In this document: positions 545 to 15,032 of the stretch, piece after piece | How positions within the stretch are numbered: the first letter of the stretch is position 1 | Layout of the letters: every line of letters starts with the position of its first letter | Virus record (IMG/VR): IMGVR_UViG_3300035698_008372 | Location: 76,004-140,003 of that record | DNA: 64,000 nt | Source: a virus | Reading direction: 5' to 3' (one strand) | Notes under the pieces: model-generated | Seen by the model: the letters and a program-made list of their open reading frames with translations, nothing else | Database searches by the model: none | Told to the model about the DNA's origin: nothing | Program-made: the position numbers and the translations under genes

Positions 545-1642
545 ATGGTAACTTTTAAATTATCGGATAAATTTATAGATGGGTTCAAGCGCAAGCGGGC
601 ACCCTTCGGTTTCAATGGGTTAGGGGCCCTAGTATATATGAGGACATATTCCAGAATAAAGGAAGATGGTTCAAATGAACAATGGTGGGAAACAGTACAG
701 CGTGTAGTTGAAGGTACATATAGCATGCAGAAAAACTGGATAGACGAACAAGGTCTTGGATGGAACCCATGGCAGGCACAGAGGTCTGCACAGGAAATGT
801 ATGAGCGTATTTTTGAAATGAAATTTCTACCACCCGGACGGGGTCTGTGGGCAATGGGCACTGCTATCACTGAAGAAAAGGGATTGTATGCGGCATTGAA
901 TAACTGTGCATTCGTATCCACCGAAAATTTGAAAGACGATTTGGCCAAACCATTCACGTTTCTAATGGACGCTTCCATGTTGGGAGTCGGTGTTGGATTT
1001 GATACAAAGGGGGCAGGGCAACTTATTGTCAAAGGCCCTAATGTGGATAGACCACCAGAAAAGTTTGTAATCCCAGATTCCCGTGAGGGTTGGGTTGATG
1101 CCATGAAATTATTGATCGAGAGCTATTTTCTTGGTACTTCACCTATGGATTATGATTATGATACAATCAGGCCAGAGGGAGCACCAATAAAGGGGTTCGG
1201 CGGCACTTCAAGTGGGTACAAACCACTTAAAGCTGCTATGGATGAAATATCCAAAACACTAGATAAAAATGTTGGGGCACCTATTACAATAACCACAATA
1301 GTTGATATTATGAATCATATTGGTAAATGTGTGGTGGCCGGAAATGTCAGACGCTGTTTACCAAATCACTATGAAGTTCAAACGGAAAATGGTTTCAAAT
1401 GTATGAGTGAACTTACATCGGGAGATATGATAAATACAGCAGGAGGTTTGCGAGAGGTTAATGATGTCATAGATAGCGGAAAACAGAAAGTGTTGAAAAT
1501 TAAAACGATGAACAATACTGAATATGAAGCTACTGAAAAACATACATTATTGGTATATAATCAGAAACTAGGCTTTAAGTGGAAAATGGTAAAGGATATT
1601 GATTCGGAGTTAGATTTTTTAGTTAAACCCAAAAATAAATAA
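545..1642 (+). CDS. nrdJ: Class II ribonucleotide reductase NrdJ, fragment 1, ending in split-intein N half (1355-1639)
   Basis: RTYSR, FLPPGRGLWAMG, NNCAF, GVGVGFD, CVVAGNVRR, then CLPNHYEV (block A) and ATEKH (block B TxxH). Confidence 0.92.
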   Translation: MVTFKLSDKFIDGFKRKRAPFGFNGLGALVYMRTYSRIKEDGSNEQWWETVQRVVEGTYSMQKNWIDEQGLGWNPWQAQRSAQEMYERIFEMKFLPPGRGLWAMGTAITEEKGLYAALNNCAFVSTENLKDDLAKPFTFLMDASMLGVGVGFDTKGAGQLIVKGPNVDRPPEKFVIPDSREGWVDAMKLLIESYFLGTSPMDYDYDTIRPEGAPIKGFGGTSSGYKPLKAAMDEISKTLDKNVGAPITITTIVDIMNHIGKCVVAGNVRRCLPNHYEVQTENGFKCMSELTSGDMINTAGGLREVNDVIDSGKQKVLKIKTMNNTEYEATEKHTLLVYNQKLGFKWKMVKDIDSELDFLVKPKNK

Positions 1643-1708
1643 AATATGAAGCGGTTAAGAATAATGGATACCGATTTAAATTAGATGTATATTAATAGGA
1701 GAATGATT

Positions 1709-2455
1709 ATGTATGGGATAGAAGATTTCAATTTGGAAGATTTCAATTTAATTTCGATTATGGAAATAGTCGATGAAAATAAATATGTTCAAACGATGGA
1801 CATAGAGGTTGCGGACAAGCATCATTTCTTTGTACGAAATCCTGAATACTCGGATGAATGTATTGTATCACACAATACAGCCGAAATTGTATTTGGTGAT
1901 CCTGAGAATCAGGAATATTTGGACTTAAAGGATTACGACGTGAATCCATATAGGGAAGAATTTGGGTGGACATCGAACAATTCTATATTTGCCGAATTGG
2001 GCATGGATTATACTGATGCTTGTAAACGTGTTGTGAAAAATGGTGAACCGGGATTTGCATGGCTTGAGAATATGCAGGGTTACTCACGTATGAAGAGCGG
2101 TAAAGACTACAAAGATAGACGTGTAAAAGGTGGAAATCCATGTGTTGTTGGTGATTCAATTATTACTACTGATAGAGGTAGACTTAGAATGGATGAATTA
2201 GTTGAACGTGTAAATTCAGGTGAAACCATAAAAGTTATGTCTTTTAATGAACAAACATTAACAACTGAATTTAATGTTATTACAAAAGCGTGGATGAGTA
2301 AAAAGGATGCTACTGTATTGACATTGGAAATTGAGGAAAATGACCAAATGTTTAAATTGACATGTACCCCCGACCATAAAATATATACAACTAATCGAGG
2401 ATATGTTGAGGCTAATGATTTAACTGGGGAGGATGATATAAAAATAATTACATAA
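1709..2455 (+). CDS. nrdJ: NrdJ fragment 2: intein-1 C half (to 1876), RNR extein, intein-2 N half (2141-2452)
   Basis: MDIEVADKHHFF...IVSHN|TAEIVFG; SNNS, GEPG; GGNP|CVVGDS...CTPDHKIYT...NDLTGEDDI; RBS AGGAG before ATG 1709. Confidence 0.9.
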   Translation: MYGIEDFNLEDFNLISIMEIVDENKYVQTMDIEVADKHHFFVRNPEYSDECIVSHNTAEIVFGDPENQEYLDLKDYDVNPYREEFGWTSNNSIFAELGMDYTDACKRVVKNGEPGFAWLENMQGYSRMKSGKDYKDRRVKGGNPCVVGDSIITTDRGRLRMDELVERVNSGETIKVMSFNEQTLTTEFNVITKAWMSKKDATVLTLEIEENDQMFKLTCTPDHKIYTTNRGYVEANDLTGEDDIKIIT

Positions 2456-2523
2456 TTCGTTTGTATATGGTATTTATTTTTGATATTTATAATAAAGAAA
2501 CACTCTATATAAAGGAATGAACT

Positions 2524-3579
2524 GTGAAAACATATTGTGAAAAAAAGAACGGAAAAATTAAATTTGGAGATACTAATCATATTAGTTACGTGGGTCACTA
2601 TACAAACAATAACAATAAAACATATTATTTGCGTAGCAAGATTGAATTCGTGGTGGCTAGATGATTAGATATAAAAAATCTTAAATTTTTATATGAATGC
2701 AAAATATATATAATAAATTCAAAAAATTATAAACCCGATTTTTTCCACACTGTAAATGATAAAATCAGAACTATTATAGAAGTAAAACCAGATAAACAAA
2801 CGGCTCTGGAATATTATTCTAAATATAACGAGTATTTTAAGAATATAGGAATTCGGTATGTAGTTTTATGAGAAAAACACATACATCAATTAATACGTAA
2901 AAATAATTTACAAGATGAGGTACTAAATTGAATAGACTATAGCATCACGAATTATAAAGTTCCCGATATGAGAGGGAAAAATAATCCTAGATATGGAATG
3001 AAAACATCAGCAACTACTAAAAAGAAGATAGGTGATAAGACCAGAGAAAGATGTAAGGATAATGAGTATATTGATAAATTGAGTACCTCTATTTCTAAGT
3101 TCTATAATACGGACATGGGACTAAAACGAAGAAATGAAATTTCAGAGTTAAGAAAACGTGAAAACGTAGAATTCTGGAAACGGAAAAATCATGATGACCC
3201 ACTTACTACTGCTATATGTAAAATATGTGGTGATTTATTTAGATATAGAGGTATTAGTGAAAGTGGTCGTGTAACTTGTAGAAAAAATGGATGTACTACA
3301 AAATATAATAATAGTATTGGAATTCCTCGAAAACCATTATCTAAAAAATCAAGTATTAGCTCATATAAAACAAGACTGTTAAACGGTGGTAATAAAATGA
3401 AATTAACTGAAAACTATAAAGATTGAAACGAGAAAATTAACATGTTAAAGAAAACGTATAATATTCCAATGACGTTTGGTATGAATGAAAATACCATTGT
3501 CAAATATTTTGGAAATATAAACACCTATATAAAGGAGATAAAAAAATATGGGAAAACTAATAAGAACGATTTTACATAA
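2524..3579 (+). CDS. Free-standing homing endonuclease (PD-(D/E)XK, NUMOD3-like and Zn-ribbon parts) with 4 in-frame TGA
   Basis: Frame is open from GTG 2524 to TAA 3579 if TGA (2662, 2869, 2929, 3424) is sense; RSKIEFVVAR*LD, YKPDFF, IIEVK, GKNNPRYG, CKIC. Confidence 0.8.
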
Positions 3580-3660
3580 AACTGTGGAGGATGTATTCGA
3601 TTTAACCGTCGATGCTGTCCATAATTTTATAGCCAATGGTATATTGGTACATAACTGCCT
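3548..3660 (+). CDS. nrdJ: NrdJ fragment 3, exon 1: intein-2 C half plus extein Cys-Leu
   Basis: MGKLIRTILHKTVEDVFDLTVDAVHNFIANGILVHN|C-L; canonical blocks F/G; too short for the ORF track. Confidence 0.88.
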
Positions 3661-3833
3661 TAACTACTAAGTCTCGGGGCAGTATAAATTTCTCCTGATT
3701 GACTTGGAAGGTGAGTATACACCGACAGGGCGCAAGGGTAAAGCCAGCGTGAGAGACTGAGCGGAGAAACTTCAAAATGAAGATGCGACAGTCCACCTTA
3801 TGAATCGAAACTTCTGATACGATTTGTAAACAG
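3661..3833 (+). ncRNA. Group I self-splicing intron (173 nt, no ORF) in nrdJ
   Basis: 5' exon ends in U (TGCCT) and intron ends in G (AACAG); removal gives TGC CTC GAA CAA = C-L-E-Q-S-L-E-S-Y-E-L-C-C-L; P7-like GAGACTG and GATGCGACAGTCC elements. Confidence 0.85.
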
Positions 3834-4764
3834 CGAACAAAGTTTAGAATCCTATGAATTGTGTTGTCTAGTTGAAACATTTCCAGACAATCATACGAGC
3901 AAAGAAGATTATTTGCGAACATTGAAATATGCTTATCTTTATGCAAAGACAGTGACACTTGGAAAAACTCATTGGCCAGACACAAATAGGGTTATGCTGA
4001 GAAATCGTAGAATTGGTACATCGGTATCTGGTATTGCCCAATTCATTACCAATCGAGGTCTGGGTGTACTCAGGGATTGGTTGGAAAGTGGGTACGATGA
4101 GATTAAGAAATGGGATGAGATGTATTCAGATTGGTTATGTATTCAGCCCAGTATAAAAATTACAAGTGTGAAACCTAGTGGGACAGTATCACTACTGGCC
4201 GGATCAACTCCAGGATTACATTATCCAGAGAGTAGGTTCTACATCAGGCGTGTACGACTGGCAAAAAGTAGTAAACTGATTACACCACTTGAAAACGCTG
4301 GATACAAAATAGAACCGGCTTATGGTTCTGAAGAAAGCACAGTTGTGGTGGAAATTCCCATTGATGAGGGTGATGGAATTAGGACAAAGAAGGACTTAAC
4401 GATGTGGGAACAATTGGCCCTTGCGGCGTTTATGCAACGGCATTGGGCTGACAATGCTGTTAGTGCCACGATCACGTTTGATCCGGAAACCGAATCGGAT
4501 CAACTCCCATTCGCTTTGAACTATTTTCAGTATCAATTAAAAGGCATTTCATTTCTACCTAGAGTGGAAAAGGGGGCCTATAGACAAATGCCGTATGAGG
4601 AAATCACTGAAAGTGAATATGATAATATGAAAACTAATCTAAAATATTTGAGTTTAATTCACATTGAAGGGGAAATGGCAAACCCAGAAAAATATTGTGG
4701 GAATGATACGTGTGAAATTGATGCCGAGTGGGCACAAGTTGAAGATGAACAGGATGAAAAATAA
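3834..4764 (+). CDS. nrdJ: NrdJ fragment 3, exon 2 (C-terminal catalytic part)
   Basis: EQSLESYELCCLVE, NRRIG, TSVKPSGTVS, YRQMPYEEI, C-terminal CGNDTC. Confidence 0.92.
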
Positions 4765-4910
4765 TCTAATCTCATAGTGAGATTGATATAGACAGATAAA
4801 CAAGGAGAAAGACAATGTTAGTAAAGTTAAAAAGTTGGACAAGAGAGAAAGTTATTGAATGTGACAGTTACCATATTGAAAAAGTGGAGCATGGACATAG
4901 ATGACAAATA

Positions 4911-5311: not shown

Positions 5312-5767
5312 ATGTACACATTAAAATTAAACGCATTTAGCGATGATATGATTGAACGGTATGCAAACCATACACATTATCATGAAGGAGATTCGGGGAT
5401 AGATTTGTTCTTCCCAGACCCAGTAACAATACCAGCTGGAACTTTGGGTAAGAAAATCGGTCTCGGATTTTCGTGTGAAATGATATATGGGATGTCTGAA
5501 AACGTGTCATTCAATATATACCCACGATCCAGTATTTCCAAAACACCATTGAGATTGTCAAATTCGGTTGGTCTAGTGGATGCTGGTTATAGAGGTGAGA
5601 TCATGGCATTATTTGATAATCACAGTGATAGGGATTACCATATTAGTGCGGGAGACAGGCTGCTACAGATCGTAGGACCCAACCTCCAGCCCATTGATTT
5701 GGAATATGCTGAAGAATTATCTGGTTCCGATAGGGATGAAGATGGTGTTGGAAGCACGGGAAAATAG
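5312..5767 (+). CDS. dut: Trimeric dUTPase
   Basis: GIDLF, PRSS, GLVDAGYRGEI, LLQIV, RDEDGVGSTG. Confidence 0.93.
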   Translation: MYTLKLNAFSDDMIERYANHTHYHEGDSGIDLFFPDPVTIPAGTLGKKIGLGFSCEMIYGMSENVSFNIYPRSSISKTPLRLSNSVGLVDAGYRGEIMALFDNHSDRDYHISAGDRLLQIVGPNLQPIDLEYAEELSGSDRDEDGVGSTGK

Positions 5768-5785
5768 TTGAAAATAAATCGTGTC

Positions 5786-5812
5786 TTTGGGAAATAAAAC
5801 ACTATTTATATA
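5786..5812 (+). promoter_or_regulatory. Putative phage middle/late promoter TTTGGG(C/A)A...TAT(T/A)TATA
   Basis: Same bipartite motif recurs at 10994, 33623 and 53690, each just upstream of a gene start. Confidence 0.55.
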
Positions 5813-5813
5813 C

Positions 5814-5886
5814 GCGGTTGAGGTGTAAGGGGATTTGCATGTCGGCTTTCCAGCCGGAGGAGTTGGTTCAAAACCTTCCAACCGCT
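5814..5886 (+). tRNA. Atypical or degenerate tRNA-Gly-like gene (6-nt anticodon loop TTTCCA, mismatched T stem)
   Basis: Acceptor GCGGTTG/CAACCGC with discriminator T; anticodon stem TCGGC/GCCGG; GGTTCAAAACC; 84-nt periodicity with the next two. Confidence 0.7.
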
Positions 5887-5897
5887 CTATTACAAAT

Positions 5898-5970
5898 GCG
5901 ATTGAGGTGTTCAAGGGGAGCACGTCGGTATTCCATATCGAAGGAGTGGGTTCGAATCCTGCCGATCGCT
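5898..5970 (+). tRNA. tRNA-Gly(TCC), atypical (A8, A32-U38)
   Basis: Acceptor GCGATTG/CGATCGC, U73, anticodon arm TCGGT-ATTCCAT-ATCGA, T loop TTCGAAT. Confidence 0.85.
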
Positions 5971-5981
5971 CTATTAAAAAT

Positions 5982-6054
5982 GCGATTGAAGTGTAACAGG
6001 TAAGCACGCCGACATACCATGTCGGAAGAGTGGGTTCGAGTCCTACTGATCGCT
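5982..6054 (+). tRNA. tRNA-Gly(ACC), atypical (A8, A32-U38, rare A34 anticodon)
   Basis: Acceptor GCGATTG/TGATCGC, U73, anticodon arm CCGAC-ATACCAT-GTCGG, T loop TTCGAGT. Confidence 0.85.
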
Positions 6055-6081
6055 CTATTAATGCAAGGAAAAAAATGTTAT

Positions 6082-7239
6082 ATGAACTTCTCAAGTAAAT
6101 TTTTCGATATCAAACCATTTGATATAGAAGAAGAAAAACAAAATCTAATCAATAATTTGGACTTTTTACATTCTATGACAGTGGAAGAACAAACCCTGTA
6201 TAAGAAATGGCAGGAGTTCAATAAGAACGAACATAAGATCAGGGGGAAAGCCCACCTGTTTGATGTGTTTGAAAAAAGGTTATGGGCACCAACCGATATC
6301 TATGATGAGGATTTAACCATTAAGGAAATTAATGCGTTGGAGCCAGTTGTAGAATATGCAGGAAGCGATGAAGCTGCTGATTGGTCATTGTATAGGATGT
6401 TAATTCACACAATGGATTGGTCTGCGAACCCCGGTAGAAATATGAAATTCTATGTAAAGGATGCTGTCACTCGTAAGGTGTTGGGTCTAATATCAATGGG
6501 TTCAGATGTTACCAGTATCAAGGTCAGAGATGATTATATTGGTTGGAAAAAAGAAGATAAATTTGTAAATCACAAGTTGAATAATACGGCTATAGCCAGC
6601 ACAATTGTGTCGGTTCAACCATTGGGTTATAACATGCTTGGTGGAAAATTGATAGCCGCGTTGGCAACAGTGTCAACAATTAGGGACAAGTGGGAAAAGG
6701 AATATGGTGATGTTCTAGCTGGGGTTACAACCACTTCATTATATGGCATCCATTCACAATATAACGGAATTCCACATTGGAAAACGATGGGTGAATCTGC
6801 TGGCAAGATTAGGATCAAGCCAGATGATAGTGAATATTTGAAATGGAATAAGTGGCTCAAAGAGAATTATCCAGATGAGTTTGAAAAAGCCATTACTGGA
6901 ACGGGTCCCAAACAGAATGTATTAAGCAAGGTATTCAGCCATTTGAAAATTAGAGGTTATGAGCATGGATTTCATAGAGGTGTCTATTTTGCGTCAATCT
7001 ATGATAATACAGTGCCATTCTTAAAGGGTGAAATTGAACAATCTGAGCTCAAAATGAAACTGAAATATGAACAGGATTATGAATATATCGACAGGTGGTG
7101 GAAAAAGAAAGCCATAAGACGATATCAGAACATGATTGCACAGGATAGGATTAAACCAGAGAAATTATTCTATGGTGATATCGTGGGTGTATCTTGGGAA
7201 GAATGCCAAGAAATGTATTTAAAAGAAGTGGGGAGATAA
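6082..7239 (+). CDS. DUF4338 / DruA-like protein (putative GNAT-fold DNA-modifying enzyme)
   Basis: PGRNMKF, RDDYIGW, QPLGYNMLGGKLIA, TTTSLYG..SQYN, GES.G; start moved downstream of the tRNA. Confidence 0.75.
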   Translation: MNFSSKFFDIKPFDIEEEKQNLINNLDFLHSMTVEEQTLYKKWQEFNKNEHKIRGKAHLFDVFEKRLWAPTDIYDEDLTIKEINALEPVVEYAGSDEAADWSLYRMLIHTMDWSANPGRNMKFYVKDAVTRKVLGLISMGSDVTSIKVRDDYIGWKKEDKFVNHKLNNTAIASTIVSVQPLGYNMLGGKLIAALATVSTIRDKWEKEYGDVLAGVTTTSLYGIHSQYNGIPHWKTMGESAGKIRIKPDDSEYLKWNKWLKENYPDEFEKAITGTGPKQNVLSKVFSHLKIRGYEHGFHRGVYFASIYDNTVPFLKGEIEQSELKMKLKYEQDYEYIDRWWKKKAIRRYQNMIAQDRIKPEKLFYGDIVGVSWEECQEMYLKEVGR

Positions 7240-7416: not shown

Positions 7417-9177
7417 ATTTATAAGTCAATTTATTTCGAAGCGGAAAAACAGAAGATTCATTTGTGGGATGATGACCGCGGCTATTTCACAATACCATAT
7501 AGACGTTATGGGTATATAAAAGATAGGGGCGGCACATATACTTCATTATATGGGGACAGGCTTAAGAAAATCCACAAGTGGGGCAAAGATTCCACTGGAT
7601 TATTTGAGAGTGATGTACACCCTGAAACAAGAACATTAATTGATCTGTACACCAATGACGATGAACCATCAAAAGGTAACAAAACGATTATTATTGATAT
7701 TGAAGTCGAGGTCACAGATGGATTCCCAACTGCTACTTTGGCCGAGAATAAGGTTACGGCTATATCAATTTACGATTTTACGGATAAGAAATATTATGGT
7801 TTGGTATTGGAAAATGGCAAGGGTATTATCAAGCCATCCACAACTCCAGAGCTTGACATTGAAGTGTTTGATATGGAAGTTGATTTGTTGAATAGATTCA
7901 TGCAGATATACCTACGCATAAAACCAACTATTATTACTGGTTGGAATGTGGATAGATTTGATGTAACATACCTATACAATAGAATGGCCGATCAGCTGGA
8001 TGAAGATGTAGCCAATTGCTTGTCTCCAATCGGTGTGGTACATTGGAGTGATTTCAGGGGTAGCTACAGAATCGCTGGGGTTGCAACAATGGATTACTTA
8101 CAGTTGTATAAGAAATTTACATTTACGCAACAGGCTTCATACAGATTGGATGCGATTGCTGATTTCGAATTGGGTGAACGCAAAATTGAATATGATGGTA
8201 CACTAAACGAATTATATGAAAATGACATTGAAAAATTTGTCCAATACAACATCCATGATGTTCGACTAATTGAGATGTTGGACAAGAAATTGAATTTTAT
8301 AGAAATCGCTCGTGGTATTTGTCACTTGGGGCATGTTCCGTATGAAGATATTTACTATGACAGTAGATACCTAGAGGCTGCTATTCTTGTTTATCTGAAA
8401 AAATTGAACATCATCGCTCCGAATAAGCCCGAGCGTGAGGGTTGGAAGGATGAAATTGGCTTTGAGGGTGCTCACGTTCAAAAGCCCAAGAAGGGTCGTC
8501 ATAATTGGGTATATGATTTGGATTTAACATCAATGTATCCAAGCATCATTATGTCGTTGAACATTTCTCCAGAGACAAAAATAGGTAAAATAGATGGGTG
8601 GGATTCCAATAAATTTGTGAAAAAAACCCCAAAAACCTATACTGTCAAATATGGTACAACCGCACTCCAATCCATGGATCAGGATGAACTACAGGTATTT
8701 TTTGATACCAATCATGTGTCGGTATCGGCCAATGGGATATTGTACAAAACTGATAGGGATGGCCTAATCGCGTCACTCCTGAAAAAGTGGTTCGACGAAC
8801 GTGTTGAATTCAGAAAATTGGCTAAGAAGTTTGCCGACGCGGGTGATAACGAGAAATATGATTATTTCAATAGACGACAACATATCCAGAAGATTCTCCT
8901 TAACTCACTTTTTGGGGCACTCGGTTTGCAGGGTTGGAGATTCCATGACGTAGACAACGCCCTTGCAGTTACATCGACGGGGGTAGAATTAATTCGATTT
9001 TCCAAAACCATTGCAAACCATTATTACAATACTGAGCTTGGTAAAGAAATTGAACTTGAAATGGAAGATGGGTCTATCAGAAAATTATATGAAAATTGGC
9101 CAATCCATGTAAAAAGGGGTGGTAAAAAAGTTCAAATTTTAGCCAAAAATCTCAAAATAAATGATGATATTCTCTAA
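7417..9177 (+). CDS. polB: Family B DNA polymerase, N-terminal fragment (exonuclease + motifs A/B); probable ATT start
   Basis: DIEV, TGWNVDRFD, YNIHDV, DLTSMYPSII, KILLNSLFG; frame is open from ATT 7417 behind AGGGGA. Confidence 0.92.
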   Translation: MYKSIYFEAEKQKIHLWDDDRGYFTIPYRRYGYIKDRGGTYTSLYGDRLKKIHKWGKDSTGLFESDVHPETRTLIDLYTNDDEPSKGNKTIIIDIEVEVTDGFPTATLAENKVTAISIYDFTDKKYYGLVLENGKGIIKPSTTPELDIEVFDMEVDLLNRFMQIYLRIKPTIITGWNVDRFDVTYLYNRMADQLDEDVANCLSPIGVVHWSDFRGSYRIAGVATMDYLQLYKKFTFTQQASYRLDAIADFELGERKIEYDGTLNELYENDIEKFVQYNIHDVRLIEMLDKKLNFIEIARGICHLGHVPYEDIYYDSRYLEAAILVYLKKLNIIAPNKPEREGWKDEIGFEGAHVQKPKKGRHNWVYDLDLTSMYPSIIMSLNISPETKIGKIDGWDSNKFVKKTPKTYTVKYGTTALQSMDQDELQVFFDTNHVSVSANGILYKTDRDGLIASLLKKWFDERVEFRKLAKKFADAGDNEKYDYFNRRQHIQKILLNSLFGALGLQGWRFHDVDNALAVTSTGVELIRFSKTIANHYYNTELGKEIELEMEDGSIRKLYENWPIHVKRGGKKVQILAKNLKINDDIL

Positions 9178-9239
9178 GTTTATACTATTTATATACAGAC
9201 ACAATGTATCAATGTATAAAATATAAATTGGAGAGTAAG

Positions 9240-10079
9240 ATGAAAAAGGGGTCAGCGAGAACATTACAATATTGATTGGATAAAGGGTATAAAGGGGAAG
9301 AAGCAGAAAAAATGCGTATGAGCAGAATTCCAGGTACTATAGAATATTTTACTATATTTAAGGGGCTCCCATTGAATGAGGCCGAAATTGCGAAAGAAAA
9401 TTATAACAAAAGGTCCGTTCCGACATTGGAAAATATGATACGCAAGTATGGGGAAACTGAAGGTGAAATTAGGTGGGGTGCATATCGTGAAAAACAGGCA
9501 AAATCCAATACATTTGAATATAAGCGTGATAAGTATGGTTGGACATTGGAACAATTCGATGCTTATAACAAATCAAGGGGATTGTCTGGTAAAGACAATG
9601 GCAATTATGGGTCGAGCTATTATGAAGCTTGGGTTAAAAAGTATGGAAAAATAAAGGCCGATGAAATGAATAATGCTTTAGGTGAATTGAAAGCCAAAGG
9701 GGGGAAATCTCAAAAAGGTGTACCCAAATCATTTGTGGCTAGAAAAAATATGAGTATAGCTGCAAAGAAAAGGATAATGGATCAGGGTACTTACATTTCA
9801 TATAATCCAAATTCAATTCCGATAATTGAAAAATATGGAAAAGAAAATGGATATAAATTTCAACATGCTGAAAATGGCGGCGAATATTTGGTTAGGGAAG
9901 TTTACTATTGGGTAGATGGGTATGATCATGAAAATAATGTGGTGGTTGAATATGATGAAAAATACCATGAAATGCAAACGGAAAAAGATAAAATTAGGCA
10001 ACAACATATAATGGATGTGTTGGGGTGCAAATTTATAAGAATTAAAGAATCTGGAGAAATTAAGATTTATGAAAATTAA
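9240..10079 (+). CDS. Free-standing endonuclease (Vsr/DUF559-like C-terminus) between PolB fragments; 1 in-frame TGA
   Basis: GGAG RBS, then MKKGSARTLQY*LDKGY (TGA 9273); KYG repeats; YWVDGYD...VVEYDEKYH...D.IRQ..I...LGCKFIRI. Confidence 0.8.
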
Positions 10080-10990
10080 AAATATAAGGGAATCAAAAGG
10101 TGTCGATGTGGATCATGTTATCTACATCGACACGTAGTGCGGATTCACTATTTATTTCGTCAACCGCGATGGTGAGCAAACGATATGGAAACAAGAAATT
10201 CAGTGATGTCATGCTGTCACAGTACATCTTGACAATAGCTGGTGACACCCAAAAATTCATAAATAACTCGTATGACTATTTTGCCAAGAAATTCTGTAAT
10301 CTTCCCGGTGCACACCGGTTTGAGATTAAACAGGAATTGATTGCAAAGTCAGCTGTATTTGTCAATGCTAAGAAAAATTATGGGTTGCGTGTTATCAATG
10401 ACAATGGTGTGAAAGTGGATAAAAATGTGTACAAAGGCTTGGCCGTAGTTCGCAGTGATTTCCCACAATCATACAGAAAATTGTTAGGTGAGGTGCTAGG
10501 TGATGTTCTAGCGGATGTTCCAAAAGATAAGATCGACGATCGTATTATTGAATACAAAAACAACATGAGATACTTGAATGTCGAAGATATCGCCAAACCA
10601 ACTGGGGTTAAGAATATCAAAAAATATTTGGTTCCACCTGGAGCGGGTGGGGGATTTTCTACTTGGAAGTCTCGTTGTCCTATCCATGTCAAATCATCTA
10701 TCATATACAATGATTTGATTAAGCATTTTGACAAACAAAAGAAGTACGCATTGATAGGGGCCGGCGACAAGGTCAAATGGGTGTACTTAAAGAAAAATAA
10801 TTTAGGATTAGAAAGTGTGGCTTATACAGGTCACGAAGACCCAAAGGAAATTATGGATTTCATATATAATTTTGTGGATAGGGATAAGATGTACGATAGT
10901 ATATTTTTGAACAAAATCACATCAATATATTCTGCCATGGACTGGTCGTTGCCCATAGATAAAAAGTTCTCGATGGACAGATTTTTTTAA
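10069..10990 (+). CDS. polB: Family B DNA polymerase, C-terminal fragment, interrupted by 7 nt (10135-10141) within motif C
   Basis: MKIKNIRESKGVDVDHVIYIDT-[TAGTGCG]-DSLFIS; KKNYG, KGLAVVRSD, PIHVK; C-terminal SMDRFF. Confidence 0.88.
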
Positions 10991-12694: not shown

Positions 12695-13498
12695 ATGGAA
12701 GAACAATTTGTAGACACGTCGAGGGTAGAACTTAGGATTATTACTACCGCTATAGCAAAAAGGATGATTGTAAAATACCATTACAGTCACGCATGGCCCG
12801 CATCAACTCAAGCTCCATTAGGGGTATTCTATAAGACAGGCAAGAAACATAAGTTTCTTGATGAGGATGATGAAAAATTGATTGGTTGTATTGTCTATGG
12901 CAATCCAGTTGGTCGTAGAGCGGCCGCATCTATAGTGGATAGTGATGAGATTAACGCTCATGAAAGTGTTTATGAATTGACAAGGTTATTCATCCATGAT
13001 GGATACGGCAAGAATATTGAGAGTTATGTTATAGGTCAATCGTTCAAATGGTTGAAAGAGAATAGGCCTAAAATCAAAATGTTGATCAGTTATGCCGACC
13101 CAGCACAGGGTCATGTTGGAGGAATCTATAAGGCCACCAACTGGGGATACCAAAGTGCGGATGATATGAAGTTGATGTTCAATTACCCAATTTCATTAAC
13201 AAACGATCCTTATGATTGGATTCATAGCCGTACTGTATTTTCAAGGTACGGAGTGACTCCATATCCAACGGATGATGCAGTAGCCAAAATGAAGAAAGCG
13301 GTGGGCCAGACATTCTGGATGAAACGAGAATGTGTGAAGCATCGCTATATTCAATTCTTAGTGGACAAGAGGGAAAAACGGAAATTGATAAAATTGCTGA
13401 AGCACCCATTTCGAGACTATCCTACAACGGCCGACGACGATAGTGAAATTATTGAAGTGATAGTTGACGGGAGTGGAAAATTTGGGAAGTTCATGTAA
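12695..13498 (+). CDS. Mom-like adenine-modifying GNAT protein, paralog 1
   Basis: KYHYSH, ELTRLFIHDGYGKNIES, ISYADPAQGHVGGIYKATNW. Confidence 0.82.
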   Translation: MEEQFVDTSRVELRIITTAIAKRMIVKYHYSHAWPASTQAPLGVFYKTGKKHKFLDEDDEKLIGCIVYGNPVGRRAAASIVDSDEINAHESVYELTRLFIHDGYGKNIESYVIGQSFKWLKENRPKIKMLISYADPAQGHVGGIYKATNWGYQSADDMKLMFNYPISLTNDPYDWIHSRTVFSRYGVTPYPTDDAVAKMKKAVGQTFWMKRECVKHRYIQFLVDKREKRKLIKLLKHPFRDYPTTADDDSEIIEVIVDGSGKFGKFM

Positions 13499-14265
13499 TG
13501 GAGAAATATACAGACATATCTAGAGTAAGTGTTCGACCAATAGATCGGACTACTGCTAAAGGTATCATTGAAAAATACCATTATAGTCATTTGATTCCAG
13601 CTACTTTACAGCTGTCATTGGGTGTATTTTATGAATCTGATGACACAGGTAAATTTTTTGATGACAATGAAAAATTGATAGGGTGCATAATGTATGGGCA
13701 TCCATCTGGCAGAATGGTAGTGGATTCCATAACCGAAGGTGATTTGCTCGATCGGGAAAATATAATGGAACTTTTGAGGTTGTTTATCCATGATGGTTAT
13801 GGCAAGAATATTGAGAGTTATGTAATCGGACAATCGTTCAAATGGCTCAAAATCAACAGACCAAAAGTAAAGGTGTTAATCAGCTTTTCCGACCCAGCAG
13901 AAGGTCATTTGGGTATCATATACCAATCGACCAACTGGTTGTTTCAAATGATTCCATCATCTGGTAAGTGGCAATTTTCAATGGAAAAAAACCCGTATCA
14001 TTGGGTACACCCCAGAACAATATTTGGAAGATATGGATTTTGTGGTGTGGAAGATATGAAAAAGTCATTTGATAAGAACTTCTATGCCAAGCGCCTGACA
14101 AACAAATTTCGATATTTGTACATACTGACCAATAAATCGGAAGCTAGGAAAATCAAGAAAAATCTAATCCACGAACTACTGCCATACCCAAAGTCAATTG
14201 ATTATATGGAAGAAATAGTGGAAGTCGAAGTGAGCGGAAATTCGAAGCTCGGAAAGTTCATATAA
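13498..14265 (+). CDS. Mom-like adenine-modifying GNAT protein, paralog 2
   Basis: KYHYSH, ELLRLFIHDGYGKNIES, ISFSDPAEGHLGIIYQSTNW. Confidence 0.82.
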   Translation: MEKYTDISRVSVRPIDRTTAKGIIEKYHYSHLIPATLQLSLGVFYESDDTGKFFDDNEKLIGCIMYGHPSGRMVVDSITEGDLLDRENIMELLRLFIHDGYGKNIESYVIGQSFKWLKINRPKVKVLISFSDPAEGHLGIIYQSTNWLFQMIPSSGKWQFSMEKNPYHWVHPRTIFGRYGFCGVEDMKKSFDKNFYAKRLTNKFRYLYILTNKSEARKIKKNLIHELLPYPKSIDYMEEIVEVEVSGNSKLGKFI

Positions 14266-15032
14266 TGGAAAAATATACGGATACTTCTAGGGTCACTATA
14301 AGGCCGATAGACAAAAAGACTGGTATTAATATGATTAAAAAATACCATTACACTCACAAAGCACCTGGTACTACTCAGGATGTGTTGGGTGTGTTTTATA
14401 AGGGTGAAGAAGCCAACAAGTTTTTCGATGATGATGAAGTATTGATCGGGTGCATGTTATATGGTCATCCAGTTGGTAGGTGGACAATAAAATCCATTAT
14501 CGAAGATGAAAATATCAAATCCTATAATGTGTATGAATTACTGAGGTTATTTGTACACGATGGGTATGGCAAGAATATCGAAAGCTTTGTCATAGGTCAA
14601 TCATTTAAGTGGCTGAAAGAGAACCGACCAGAGGTGAAAATATTGGTGAGTTATGCCGATCCTGAAGCCGGTCATGTGGGCATCATATACCAATCAACTA
14701 ACTGGATGTTCCAGATTCCAGAACCAGGTGGAGCAATGATGACTTCACTAACCAAAGACCCGTATGTATGGGTTCACCCAAGGTCAATGCACGCAAAGTT
14801 TGGTGCTTGTGGGGTGGATGGTCTCAAAGAGGCATTGGACAAACCATTCTACATGAAAAAATCACCTCCAAAATTTAGATATGTATATCTATTGACGGAC
14901 AAAAGGGAGAGCAAGATATTGAAATCGAAATTCGTATATCAACAATCTCCATATCCAAAAGAGCACGATTATGTTGAAAAAGTTATTGAAATGGTGCCCA
15001 ATGAAGAGAAAAAATTTAGTAAATTTATTTAA
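14265..15032 (+). CDS. Mom-like adenine-modifying GNAT protein, paralog 3
   Basis: KYHYTH, ELLRLFVHDGYGKNIES, VSYADPEAGHVGIIYQSTNW. Confidence 0.82.
   Translation: MEKYTDTSRVTIRPIDKKTGINMIKKYHYTHKAPGTTQDVLGVFYKGEEANKFFDDDEVLIGCMLYGHPVGRWTIKSIIEDENIKSYNVYELLRLFVHDGYGKNIESFVIGQSFKWLKENRPEVKILVSYADPEAGHVGIIYQSTNWMFQIPEPGGAMMTSLTKDPYVWVHPRSMHAKFGACGVDGLKEALDKPFYMKKSPPKFRYVYLLTDKRESKILKSKFVYQQSPYPKEHDYVEKVIEMVPNEEKKFSKFI

Follow-up and report, generated by a model that had tools for sequence, protein, structure and literature searches.

We analyzed a window that comprises the final 64,000 nucleotides of a virus contig of 140,003 bp (IMG/VR record IMGVR_UViG_3300035698_008372, positions 76,004 to 140,003; 37.6% G+C). 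At 5814-6054 it carries three tandem genes of the tRNA-Gly type (copies 1 to 3, hereafter c1, c2, and c3), whose starts are spaced by exactly 84 nt and which lie between a dUTPase gene and a DruA/DUF4338-like gene. According to our in silico analysis, this trio probably supplies phage-encoded glycyl donors for DNA hypermodification of the Mom type, possibly with a second role in decoding. Judging from sequence comparisons, the tRNA class concerned shows a genetic link to enzymes of the Mom family, three of which are predicted in the same window; the marks of the class are A8, Watson-Crick pairing of 32 with 38, and U73-C74 with no CCA encoded.

All three copies have A8 and lack the usual U8, the near-universal tertiary partner of A14 in canonical elongator tRNAs. 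Position 14 is T in c2 only and A in c1 and c3; the U14 of copy 2, which a preliminary description of this DNA had taken as compensating for A8, is present but follows no compensation rule. T73 is followed by C-T-A in every copy and none encodes CCA. A32 and T38 were confirmed by reading in c2 and c3, which thereby carry all the marks of the class. c1 has A8 and U73-C74 but is without position 38; its anticodon arm consists of a 5-bp stem and a 6-nt loop (TTTCCA), for which a 7-nt register is impossible. The anticodon loops of c2 and c3 are ATTCCAT and ATACCAT, where A32-U38 and U33-A37 can pair, leaving a 3-nt loop in the minimum free energy fold. The anticodons first described (TCC, ACC, and the 6-nt TTTCCA) are thus all there, but not in the order given, as along the DNA they run 6-nt loop, TCC, ACC.

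Behind a G49-C65 pair common to the three copies, the T stem has mismatches U50.U64 and U51.U63 in c1, U50.G64 and G51.U63 in c2, and a U-A pair at 50-64 with G51.U63 in c3. The T-loops are TTCAAAA, TTCGAAT, and TTCGAGT, respectively. The bacterial identity set for glycyl-tRNA synthetase (GlyRS) consists of G1-C72, C2-G71, G3-C70, U73, C35, and C36, and it is complete in c1, c2, and c3. With the Rfam tRNA model RF00005 (gathering score 29 bits), c3 (47.1) and c1 (31.9) exceed the gathering score and c2 (23.8, a local match) is below it; ARAGORN finds c2 (tcc) and c3 (acc) but not c1.

Relatives of the trio were collected with the DruA-like gene as bait, which gave 80 loci from viruses and 80 from metagenomes (protein identity 51-90%). 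Many of these loci have a single tRNA-Gly at the same place; among the first 82 loci, 22 have it immediately before the DruA-like gene. The contig is that of a T4-like phage whose relatives come from marine metagenomes, and we refer to these tRNAs as the marine family. Our results showed A8 in 25/25 distinct sequences of this family, and the family covariance model (R1) gives the window copies 62.7-77 bits. In an alignment of 16 sequences, 98% of stem cells are paired and both sides have changed in 14/22 pairs. This covariation was reached by 0/500 shuffles, and slid controls pair at 42-54%. Positions 32 and 38 are complementary throughout this alignment, as A-U or U-A, and the GlyRS identity set is invariant in the family. 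The possibility that homologs would show random decay was therefore checked and did not hold, since A8 and the 32-38 pair are conserved and the stems covary. Some relatives have A49-U65, U50-A64, and U51-A63 in the T stem. The G.U pairs that were first pointed out there do occur in c2 and c3 but are restricted to the window copies and are not a trait of the family.

A sister phage (L003-L005, L379-L381), in which a neighboring protein is 90% identical, has two tRNA copies. The first of them (L003:5821-5893) is the ortholog of c1 and keeps both the 6-nt loop and the U.U mismatches. The two c1 orthologs differ by eight substitutions, five of them in stems, and all of these keep or improve pairing (5-68 U-A to C-G, 29-41 G-C to A-U, and 27-43 U.G to U-A). 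A pattern scan specific for copy 1 matched just the sister-phage contigs, besides one chance match within a coding region, so this type rests on two lineages. Between c2 and the second copy of L003, compensatory changes are found at 27-43 and 28-42. The same L003 copy (TCC) is the nearest relative of c3, with a compensatory change at 31-39. On this sequence evidence, c2 and c3 come from a duplication specific to the window lineage and have undergone compensatory anticodon-stem changes since, and the trio consists of functional, selected RNAs of the tRNA-Gly type, not of decaying duplicates.

The three predicted mom paralogs begin 6.6 kb downstream of the trio (Pfam Mom PF25680, E 1.7e-44 to 2.2e-42). 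All of them keep equivalents of R111 and S124 of Mu Mom, in ELxR and NIES motifs, as read from an alignment through PDB 8bv8. Mom2 is no recent duplicate, as it is just 54% identical to Mom3. Mu Mom acts on double-stranded DNA, where it loads N6 of adenine with glycine taken from Gly-tRNAGly. Any of the three E. coli isoacceptors can serve as donor but Gly-tRNAAla cannot, and the terminal riboadenosine is required (Silva et al., 2026, PMC13219725). Outside the window, elsewhere on the contig (G000:C1:42844-43290), a 573-aa open frame contains a fourth but weak match to Mom, which scores 26.5 bits, just under the cut-off. The window has three tRNAs and three Moms (12695-15032), and the sister phage two and two (L463:4001-5541). 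A one-to-one matching of tRNA and Mom copies was rejected because it is seen in these two genomes only, other family contigs having one tRNA with two or three Moms.

The link between A8 tRNA-Gly and mom was then followed in other viruses. Mom abuts the tRNA in 4/57 viral A8 tRNA-Gly loci, which represent three lineages, versus 0/120 U8 control loci among the matches listed (one-sided probability about 0.01, or about 0.03 when counted by lineage). One case belongs to the marine family itself, where the A8 tRNA of L109/L114 lies about 10 nt upstream of a Mom open reading frame. Whole-contig searches gave strong Mom matches in 6/50 A8 contigs versus 0/50 U8 contigs. With the Mom protein of locus L122 as bait, we fetched 80 loci of one Mom clade (L122 type). 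ARAGORN found 19 tRNAs in them, all of which are tRNA-Gly with A8, on the Mom strand and just after Mom. The R1 model matched in 59/80 loci. Relative to the point where the Mom alignment ends, all but three of these matches begin between -3 and +112 nt, 49 of them within 6 nt, and the remaining three lie about 610-640 nt downstream of the Mom end.

Class frequencies were taken from 34 distinct, well-aligned Mom-abutting sequences of this clade. A8, C35, C36, U73, and C74 are each present in 34/34, and G1, C2, G3 (33/34), G10, A58, and C61 are invariant or nearly so. The identity elements C35/C36, U73, and the acceptor pairs, which had been proposed as kept, are indeed retained in all window copies, in the whole marine family, and in 33-34 of these 34 sequences. 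Positions 32 and 38 form a Watson-Crick pair in 32/34, often C-G; stems are 98.1% paired, with both sides changed in 19/21 pairs. In the same sequences U33 is found in 21/34, U55 in 23/34 (G in the other 11), and the D-loop GG in 21/34, position 34 is U in 29, A in 4, and C in 1, and position 37 is A or G. With the identity set conserved and U33, U55, and the D-loop GG drifting, this pattern is, at the level of sequence, the signature of an RNA selected for glycylation rather than decoding, and it resembles the non-proteogenic tRNA-Gly of staphylococci.

The physical association can go as far as overlap. In GC-rich phages the Mom frame meets no stop codon ahead of the tRNA and continues across it (L122:4192-4896 with the tRNA at 4801-4873; in L103 the Mom open reading frame at 1893-3107 and the tRNA at 1915-1987, both on the minus strand), so that excision of the tRNA would remove the 3' end of the mom mRNA and its stop. 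Overlap is also seen in a cultured phage: in Arthrobacter phage Martha (L629) an unannotated A8 tRNA-Gly-like gene at 1804-1875 (46356-46427 of the phage record) overlaps the 3' end of the Mom-like gp71 (1204-1824). We found no mention of tRNA genes beside mom in Silva et al. (2026), in its preprint, or in a jumbo-phage review.

The marks of the class have to be read with care. A8 had been presented as a broken ribosome-facing rule, a view that did not survive comparison with bacteria. A pattern scan gave at least 120 cellular A8 tRNA-Gly genes, mostly from Solirubrobacterales and related Actinomycetota. These have ordinary C32/A38 loops, and Mom is nearby in 1/120 loci among the matches listed. 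In four genomes of the Solirubrobacterales type, an A8 gene is the sole match for tRNA-Gly(UCC) with a pattern that ignores position 8, and none of these four loci (L623-L626) has Mom nearby. We therefore rejected A8 by itself as an indication of non-decoding. Although A8 is the single universal mark of the class linked to Mom, it does no harm in bacteria whose apparently sole tRNA-Gly(UCC) has it. Position 14 is usually a pyrimidine (U or C) across A8 tRNAs. In Solirubrobacterales and related Actinomycetota (L139-L258), the tRNA-Gly(UCC) combines A8 with R9, a D stem GUGU/GCAC, and usually a pyrimidine at 14, which looks like a lineage-wide rebuild of the tRNA core.

The CTA end had likewise been listed as a departure. 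It is present after all three copies, but as trailer and not as a defect, since no family member encodes CCA and C74 alone is conserved after position 73. The U32-A38 pair is known as a tuning element of tRNA-Gly and is said to tune A-site binding (PMC10853795).

The anticodon ACC deserves separate mention. Natural tRNA-Gly(ACC) has been described as universally missing, phages included (PMC8007984), and A34 was reported to destabilize the tRNA-Gly loop (PMC4928997). Here, c3 has ACC and its closest relative TCC. ACC also occurs in the L054 type, represented by at least six independent assemblies, in the L113 type, which differs by a single base from L067 with its TCC, and in 4/34 distinct Mom-abutting sequences. 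By these sequence comparisons, ACC arose repeatedly in this tRNA class.

On the donor reading, the trio would be transcribed together with the DruA-like gene or just ahead of it. Host RNase P and a 3' nuclease would cut out the tRNAs, and the host CCA-adding enzyme would complete their ends; the host enzyme is invoked because none is encoded on the contig, whose proteins include neither a CCA-adding enzyme nor a GlyRS alpha subunit that we could find. Host GlyRS would then glycylate the trio through the identity set, whose conservation is described above, and the charged tRNAs would donate glycine to the three Mom paralogs. By homology to Mu Mom, these would put glycine on N6 of adenine in double-stranded DNA and so block restriction. 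As donors for Mom, the trio would therefore add Gly-tRNA capacity for DNA hypermodification. As a rough estimate, the glycyl transfers needed for a sizeable fraction of adenines in about 100 copies of a genome of about 200 kb are comparable to the glycine demand of virion protein synthesis, so extra tRNA-Gly capacity would make sense. c1, with its 6-nt loop and two U.U mismatches in the T stem, is probably a pure donor and very probably does not decode. c2 (UCC) and c3 (ACC) may be shared with the ribosome, because U33, A37, the T-loop, and G18G19 are retained throughout most of the marine family.

Several observations weigh against the donor reading. In the window, the trio is not adjacent to mom. 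A8 alone is not diagnostic. U33 and A37 are present in 25/25 marine-family sequences, as would be kept by a decoding tRNA, and T-loop TTCGA (TTCAA in c1) with G18G19 in 24/25. None of the 80 Mom loci closest to the Mom of the window has a tRNA within 4 kb. A private tRNA is not required for Mom, because Mu Mom works with host tRNAs. In addition, the contig is about 71% complete (CheckV). Co-occurrence speaks for the donor reading among contigs of the DruA family above 90 kb, of which five have Mom and tRNA, two have neither (one of them 93% complete), one carries Mom alone, and none carries the tRNA alone. These counts, however, are drawn from contigs that are fragmentary and related, and there are exceptions: the tRNA is missing from G105 and G111, which have Mom, and Mom is missing from G047, which has the tRNA. 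There is also no tRNA next to the Mom genes of Polaribacter phage P12002L and Aeromonas phage PX29.

According to the most serious alternative, which we consider unlikely, the trio consists of ordinary decoding tRNAs that supplement host tRNA-Gly for the phage codons, and the link to Mom is coincidental or reflects a general demand for Gly-tRNA. c2 would read GGA/GGG, c3 would read GGU, the most frequent codon, and possibly all GGN, and c1 would be a tolerated cripple. The codon usage of the phage fits this, as its glycine codons are led by GGT (42%), followed by GGA (27%), GGG (17%), and GGC (14%). So does the conservation in the marine family of U33, A37, the T-loop, and G18G19, and of an anticodon loop for which 7 nt are possible. 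A8 is compatible with decoding, being found in the sole tRNA-Gly(UCC) match of four bacterial genomes; a U32-A38 pair is known in tRNA-Gly, and the ACC mutant of Mycoplasma mycoides tRNA-Gly reads all four GGN codons in vitro (PMC10853795). However, position 34 has changed from U to A at loci where this is the only tRNA-Gly found (L054 and L113 types), and the non-decoding architecture of c1 is actively maintained. The A8 type abuts mom genes, which U8 tRNA-Gly never does among the matches listed.

Moreover, a canonical U8 tRNA-Gly(UCC) adjoins the A8 copy in L057 (4188-4259 and 5568-5640) and in L456 (1885-1956 and 2001-2073), and this coexistence suggests distinct roles for U8 and A8 copies. 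The A8 copy of L057 has the UGC T-loop and a D loop without GG, as in the Mom-abutting class, and that of L456 has an ACC anticodon and a C.U mismatch at 50-64. The earlier proposal that selection acts on charging over decoding can be kept in part. It is favored by the conserved identity set, the changes at N34, the drift of U33, U55, and G18G19 in the Mom-abutting class, and the Mom partner. Against it, c2, c3, and the marine family keep U33, A37, the T-loop, and G18G19, and they may therefore decode.

The trio might also counter host defenses that target tRNAs, such as anticodon nucleases, which the preliminary description had already raised as an alternative, or toxins of the GNAT type that acetylate Gly-tRNAGly. 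The copies would then be decoys or escape variants, with A8, the paired 32-38, and the variable position 34 breaking recognition. The anticodon loop does vary (U34, A34, 6-nt loop) on a conserved body, and GNAT toxins targeting Gly-tRNAGly are mentioned in PMC13219725. This explanation leaves the physical fusion of tRNA and mom in 59/80 loci without a cause; A8 is invariant, whereas an escape change should vary with the host, and no nuclease or toxin partner was identified in our analysis. We regard it as very improbable. Still less probable in our view is that the genes are tRNA-shaped punctuation for RNase P/Z, or mRNA-stability signals for the dUTPase and DruA-like transcripts, in which the charged RNA has no role. 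Both the leader and the location immediately before the DruA-like gene are conserved, and in the GC-rich phages excision of a tRNA traversed by the Mom frame would cut the mRNA. But the invariant C35, C36, U73, and G1-G3 of the GlyRS identity set are not needed for processing, nor are three tandem copies with diverged anticodon arms. Finally, simple decay of duplicates of one tRNA-Gly gene, to which the low Rfam score of c2, the failure of ARAGORN to find c1, and the T-stem mismatches and G.U pairs could point, is scarcely credible given the compensatory double substitutions in all three copies since their divergence, the c1 architecture common to the sister phage, and the 98% of stem cells still paired.

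The features of the locus are listed in Table 1.

Table 1. Features around the tRNA-Gly trio and the mom paralogs (window coordinates)
Feature	Coordinates	Strand	Remarks
dUTPase gene	5312..5767	+	Upstream flank; PHROG dUTPase E 4.8e-32; Pfam dUTPase
Intergenic leader, dUTPase stop to copy 1	5768..5813	+	About 90% conserved with sister phage (L003 alignment)
Copy 1 (c1), tRNA-Gly-like	5814..5886	+	Rfam 31.9 bits; R1 family model 62.7 bits
Spacer after copy 1	5887..5897	+	Conserved C74, then trailer TATTACAAAT
Copy 2 (c2), tRNA-Gly(UCC)	5898..5970	+	ARAGORN; Rfam 23.8 bits, local; R1 76.8 bits
Copy 3 (c3), tRNA-Gly(ACC)	5982..6054	+	ARAGORN; Rfam 47.1 bits; R1 77 bits
DruA/DUF4338-like gene	6082..7239	+	True start 6082, 27 nt past copy 3; Pfam DruA PF14236 E 2.4e-22
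Mom paralog 1	12695..13498	+	Pfam Mom PF25680 E 3.9e-43; PDB 8bv8 (Mu Mom) E 5.9e-7
Mom paralog 2	13498..14265	+	Pfam Mom PF25680 E 1.9e-42
Mom paralog 3	14265..15032	+	Pfam Mom PF25680 E 2.2e-42; G000:90295-90963

The design of C74 plus trailer in the first spacer recurs after copy 2 (5971-5981) and opens the trailer after copy 3 (6055-6065). In most family loci a leader ATATATATTATT stands directly before tRNA position 1 (for example, L047:3045-3056). In the window and its sister phage it is replaced by TATTTATA, located at 5804-5811 of the leader of the window. The leader may be a promoter or a processing signal, with a transcript starting at or near the tRNA; a scan of the locus for sigma-70 promoters and terminators gave nothing above the shuffled background. 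The contig encodes a T4-type family-B DNA polymerase, with Microcystis phage Mel-JY01 as the best named relative (43%). Ribonucleotide reductase and the family-B DNA polymerase are each in pieces (window 545-4764 and 7462-10990), and signals for intein/HINT, NUMOD3, and DUF559 endonucleases were seen in the genes that separate these pieces. A blastn search of the region against cultured phages found no match, and a search with the tRNAs only gave just generic similarity to tRNAs of actinophage tRNA clusters, with no Mom nearby.

The DruA-like neighbor is itself found next to Mom. It directly adjoins Mom in five other lineages, including L011/L393, L082, L420, and L450 (L011:7170-7766, L082:4-684, L420:2133-2861, and L450:3031-3621). 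An AlphaFold model of the protein is of medium confidence (predicted local distance difference test 69, predicted TM score 0.70). Its residues 82-307 align to GNAT-fold proteins only, the top 50 VIA-align matches having middling Z scores of 5.4-6.6; among them are S. aureus FemA (Z 6.5, 120 residues, root-mean-square deviation 3.8) and Mu Mom (Z 6.2, 136 residues, root-mean-square deviation 4.4). A Foldseek search of the model against PDB found nothing at E <= 0.001, and a profile comparison of the DruA-like family with Mom showed no significant similarity. A short motif, KWLKEN.P, is common to the DruA-like and Mom families and is not significant. A GNAT-like fold of the core of the predicted structure is thus only suggested, because the Z scores are middling, Foldseek gave nothing significant, and the profile comparison was negative.

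A broader hypothesis, which we put forward tentatively and with less than even confidence, is that Mom-using phages carry a non-proteinogenic class of tRNA-Gly, with A8, a paired 32-38, a retained GlyRS identity, and optional decoding features, that would be kept from EF-Tu and the ribosome and would feed DNA-modifying GNAT enzymes. The trio would then be three specialized species (6-nt loop, UCC, and natural ACC) for the three Moms, and possibly for the DruA-like protein. If this is true, the DruA-like protein as a recipient of glycine would hint at the function of DruA of Druantia. Mom is the first enzyme shown, between 2023 and 2026, to modify DNA using a charged tRNA. If the tRNAs described here evolved for this purpose, they would follow those of cell-wall synthesis in staphylococci as the second natural case of tRNAs shaped by evolution for work outside the ribosome, and would be the first such case encoded by viruses and used for DNA chemistry. 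Testable material is at hand in the three tRNAs, the three Mom paralogs, and the cultured Arthrobacter phage with the same cassette. The natural and recurrent tRNA-Gly(ACC) also bears on why this anticodon has been described as universally absent. In practice, tRNA finders miss or mis-call these genes, which overlap with annotated mom open reading frames.

Compared with known systems, the closest is Mu Mom (PMC13219725; PDB 8bv8), whose R111 and S124 have equivalents in the three Pfam Mom genes of the window. Recognition of Gly-tRNAGly by Mu Mom depends largely on the acceptor end and the amino acid, in agreement with what is conserved in the class of the trio. Unlike Mu, which relies on host tRNAs and has one Mom, the window has its own tRNA-Gly genes, a special type that accompanies mom in many other phages too, and three predicted Moms.

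The staphylococcal NP1-NP3 tRNA-Gly are UCC paralogs, charged by GlyRS, that serve as donors to the GNAT-fold proteins FmhB, FemA, and FemB; they have a 6-bp anticodon stem, a 5-nt loop, and weak A49-U65, U50-A64, and A51-U63 pairs, and bind poorly to EF-Tu and the ribosome (PMC7826273). Their UGC T-loop recurs in the A8 copy of L057 and in 11/34 Mom-abutting sequences. They differ from the tRNAs of the window in that U8 (s4U8) is kept, that they are confined to staphylococci, and that the acceptor is a peptidoglycan precursor. The window copies keep a TTC T-loop and G49-C65 and are of phage origin. The relation to the staphylococcal tRNAs is one of analogy, not membership.

In the ssrA islands of Dehalococcoides, a tRNA-Gly-like pseudo-tRNA is embedded in a mom homolog (McMurdie et al., 2011, PMC3146451), the same kind of cassette as in 59/80 Mom loci of the L122 type. 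That study treated it only as a conserved locus to which primers could be directed and drew no functional link (PMC3146451). The pseudo-tRNA lies within the first 150 bp of the mom homolog, whereas the tRNA of the L122 type is at the 3' end and those of the window are separate, 6.6 kb off.

Canonical phage tRNA-Gly(UCC) genes (L057:4188, L456:1885) share with the trio the cloverleaf, UCC, the lack of an encoded CCA, and a location in the early/replication region. They have U8, A14, and C32/A38, whereas A8 in the trio is combined with pairing of 32 and 38, variation at position 34, and, for c1, a 6-nt loop. Engineered tRNA-Gly(ACC) can be charged by GlyRS (PMC4928997; PMC10853795); these are laboratory mutants, in contrast to the natural and recurrent ACC of the tRNAs described here.

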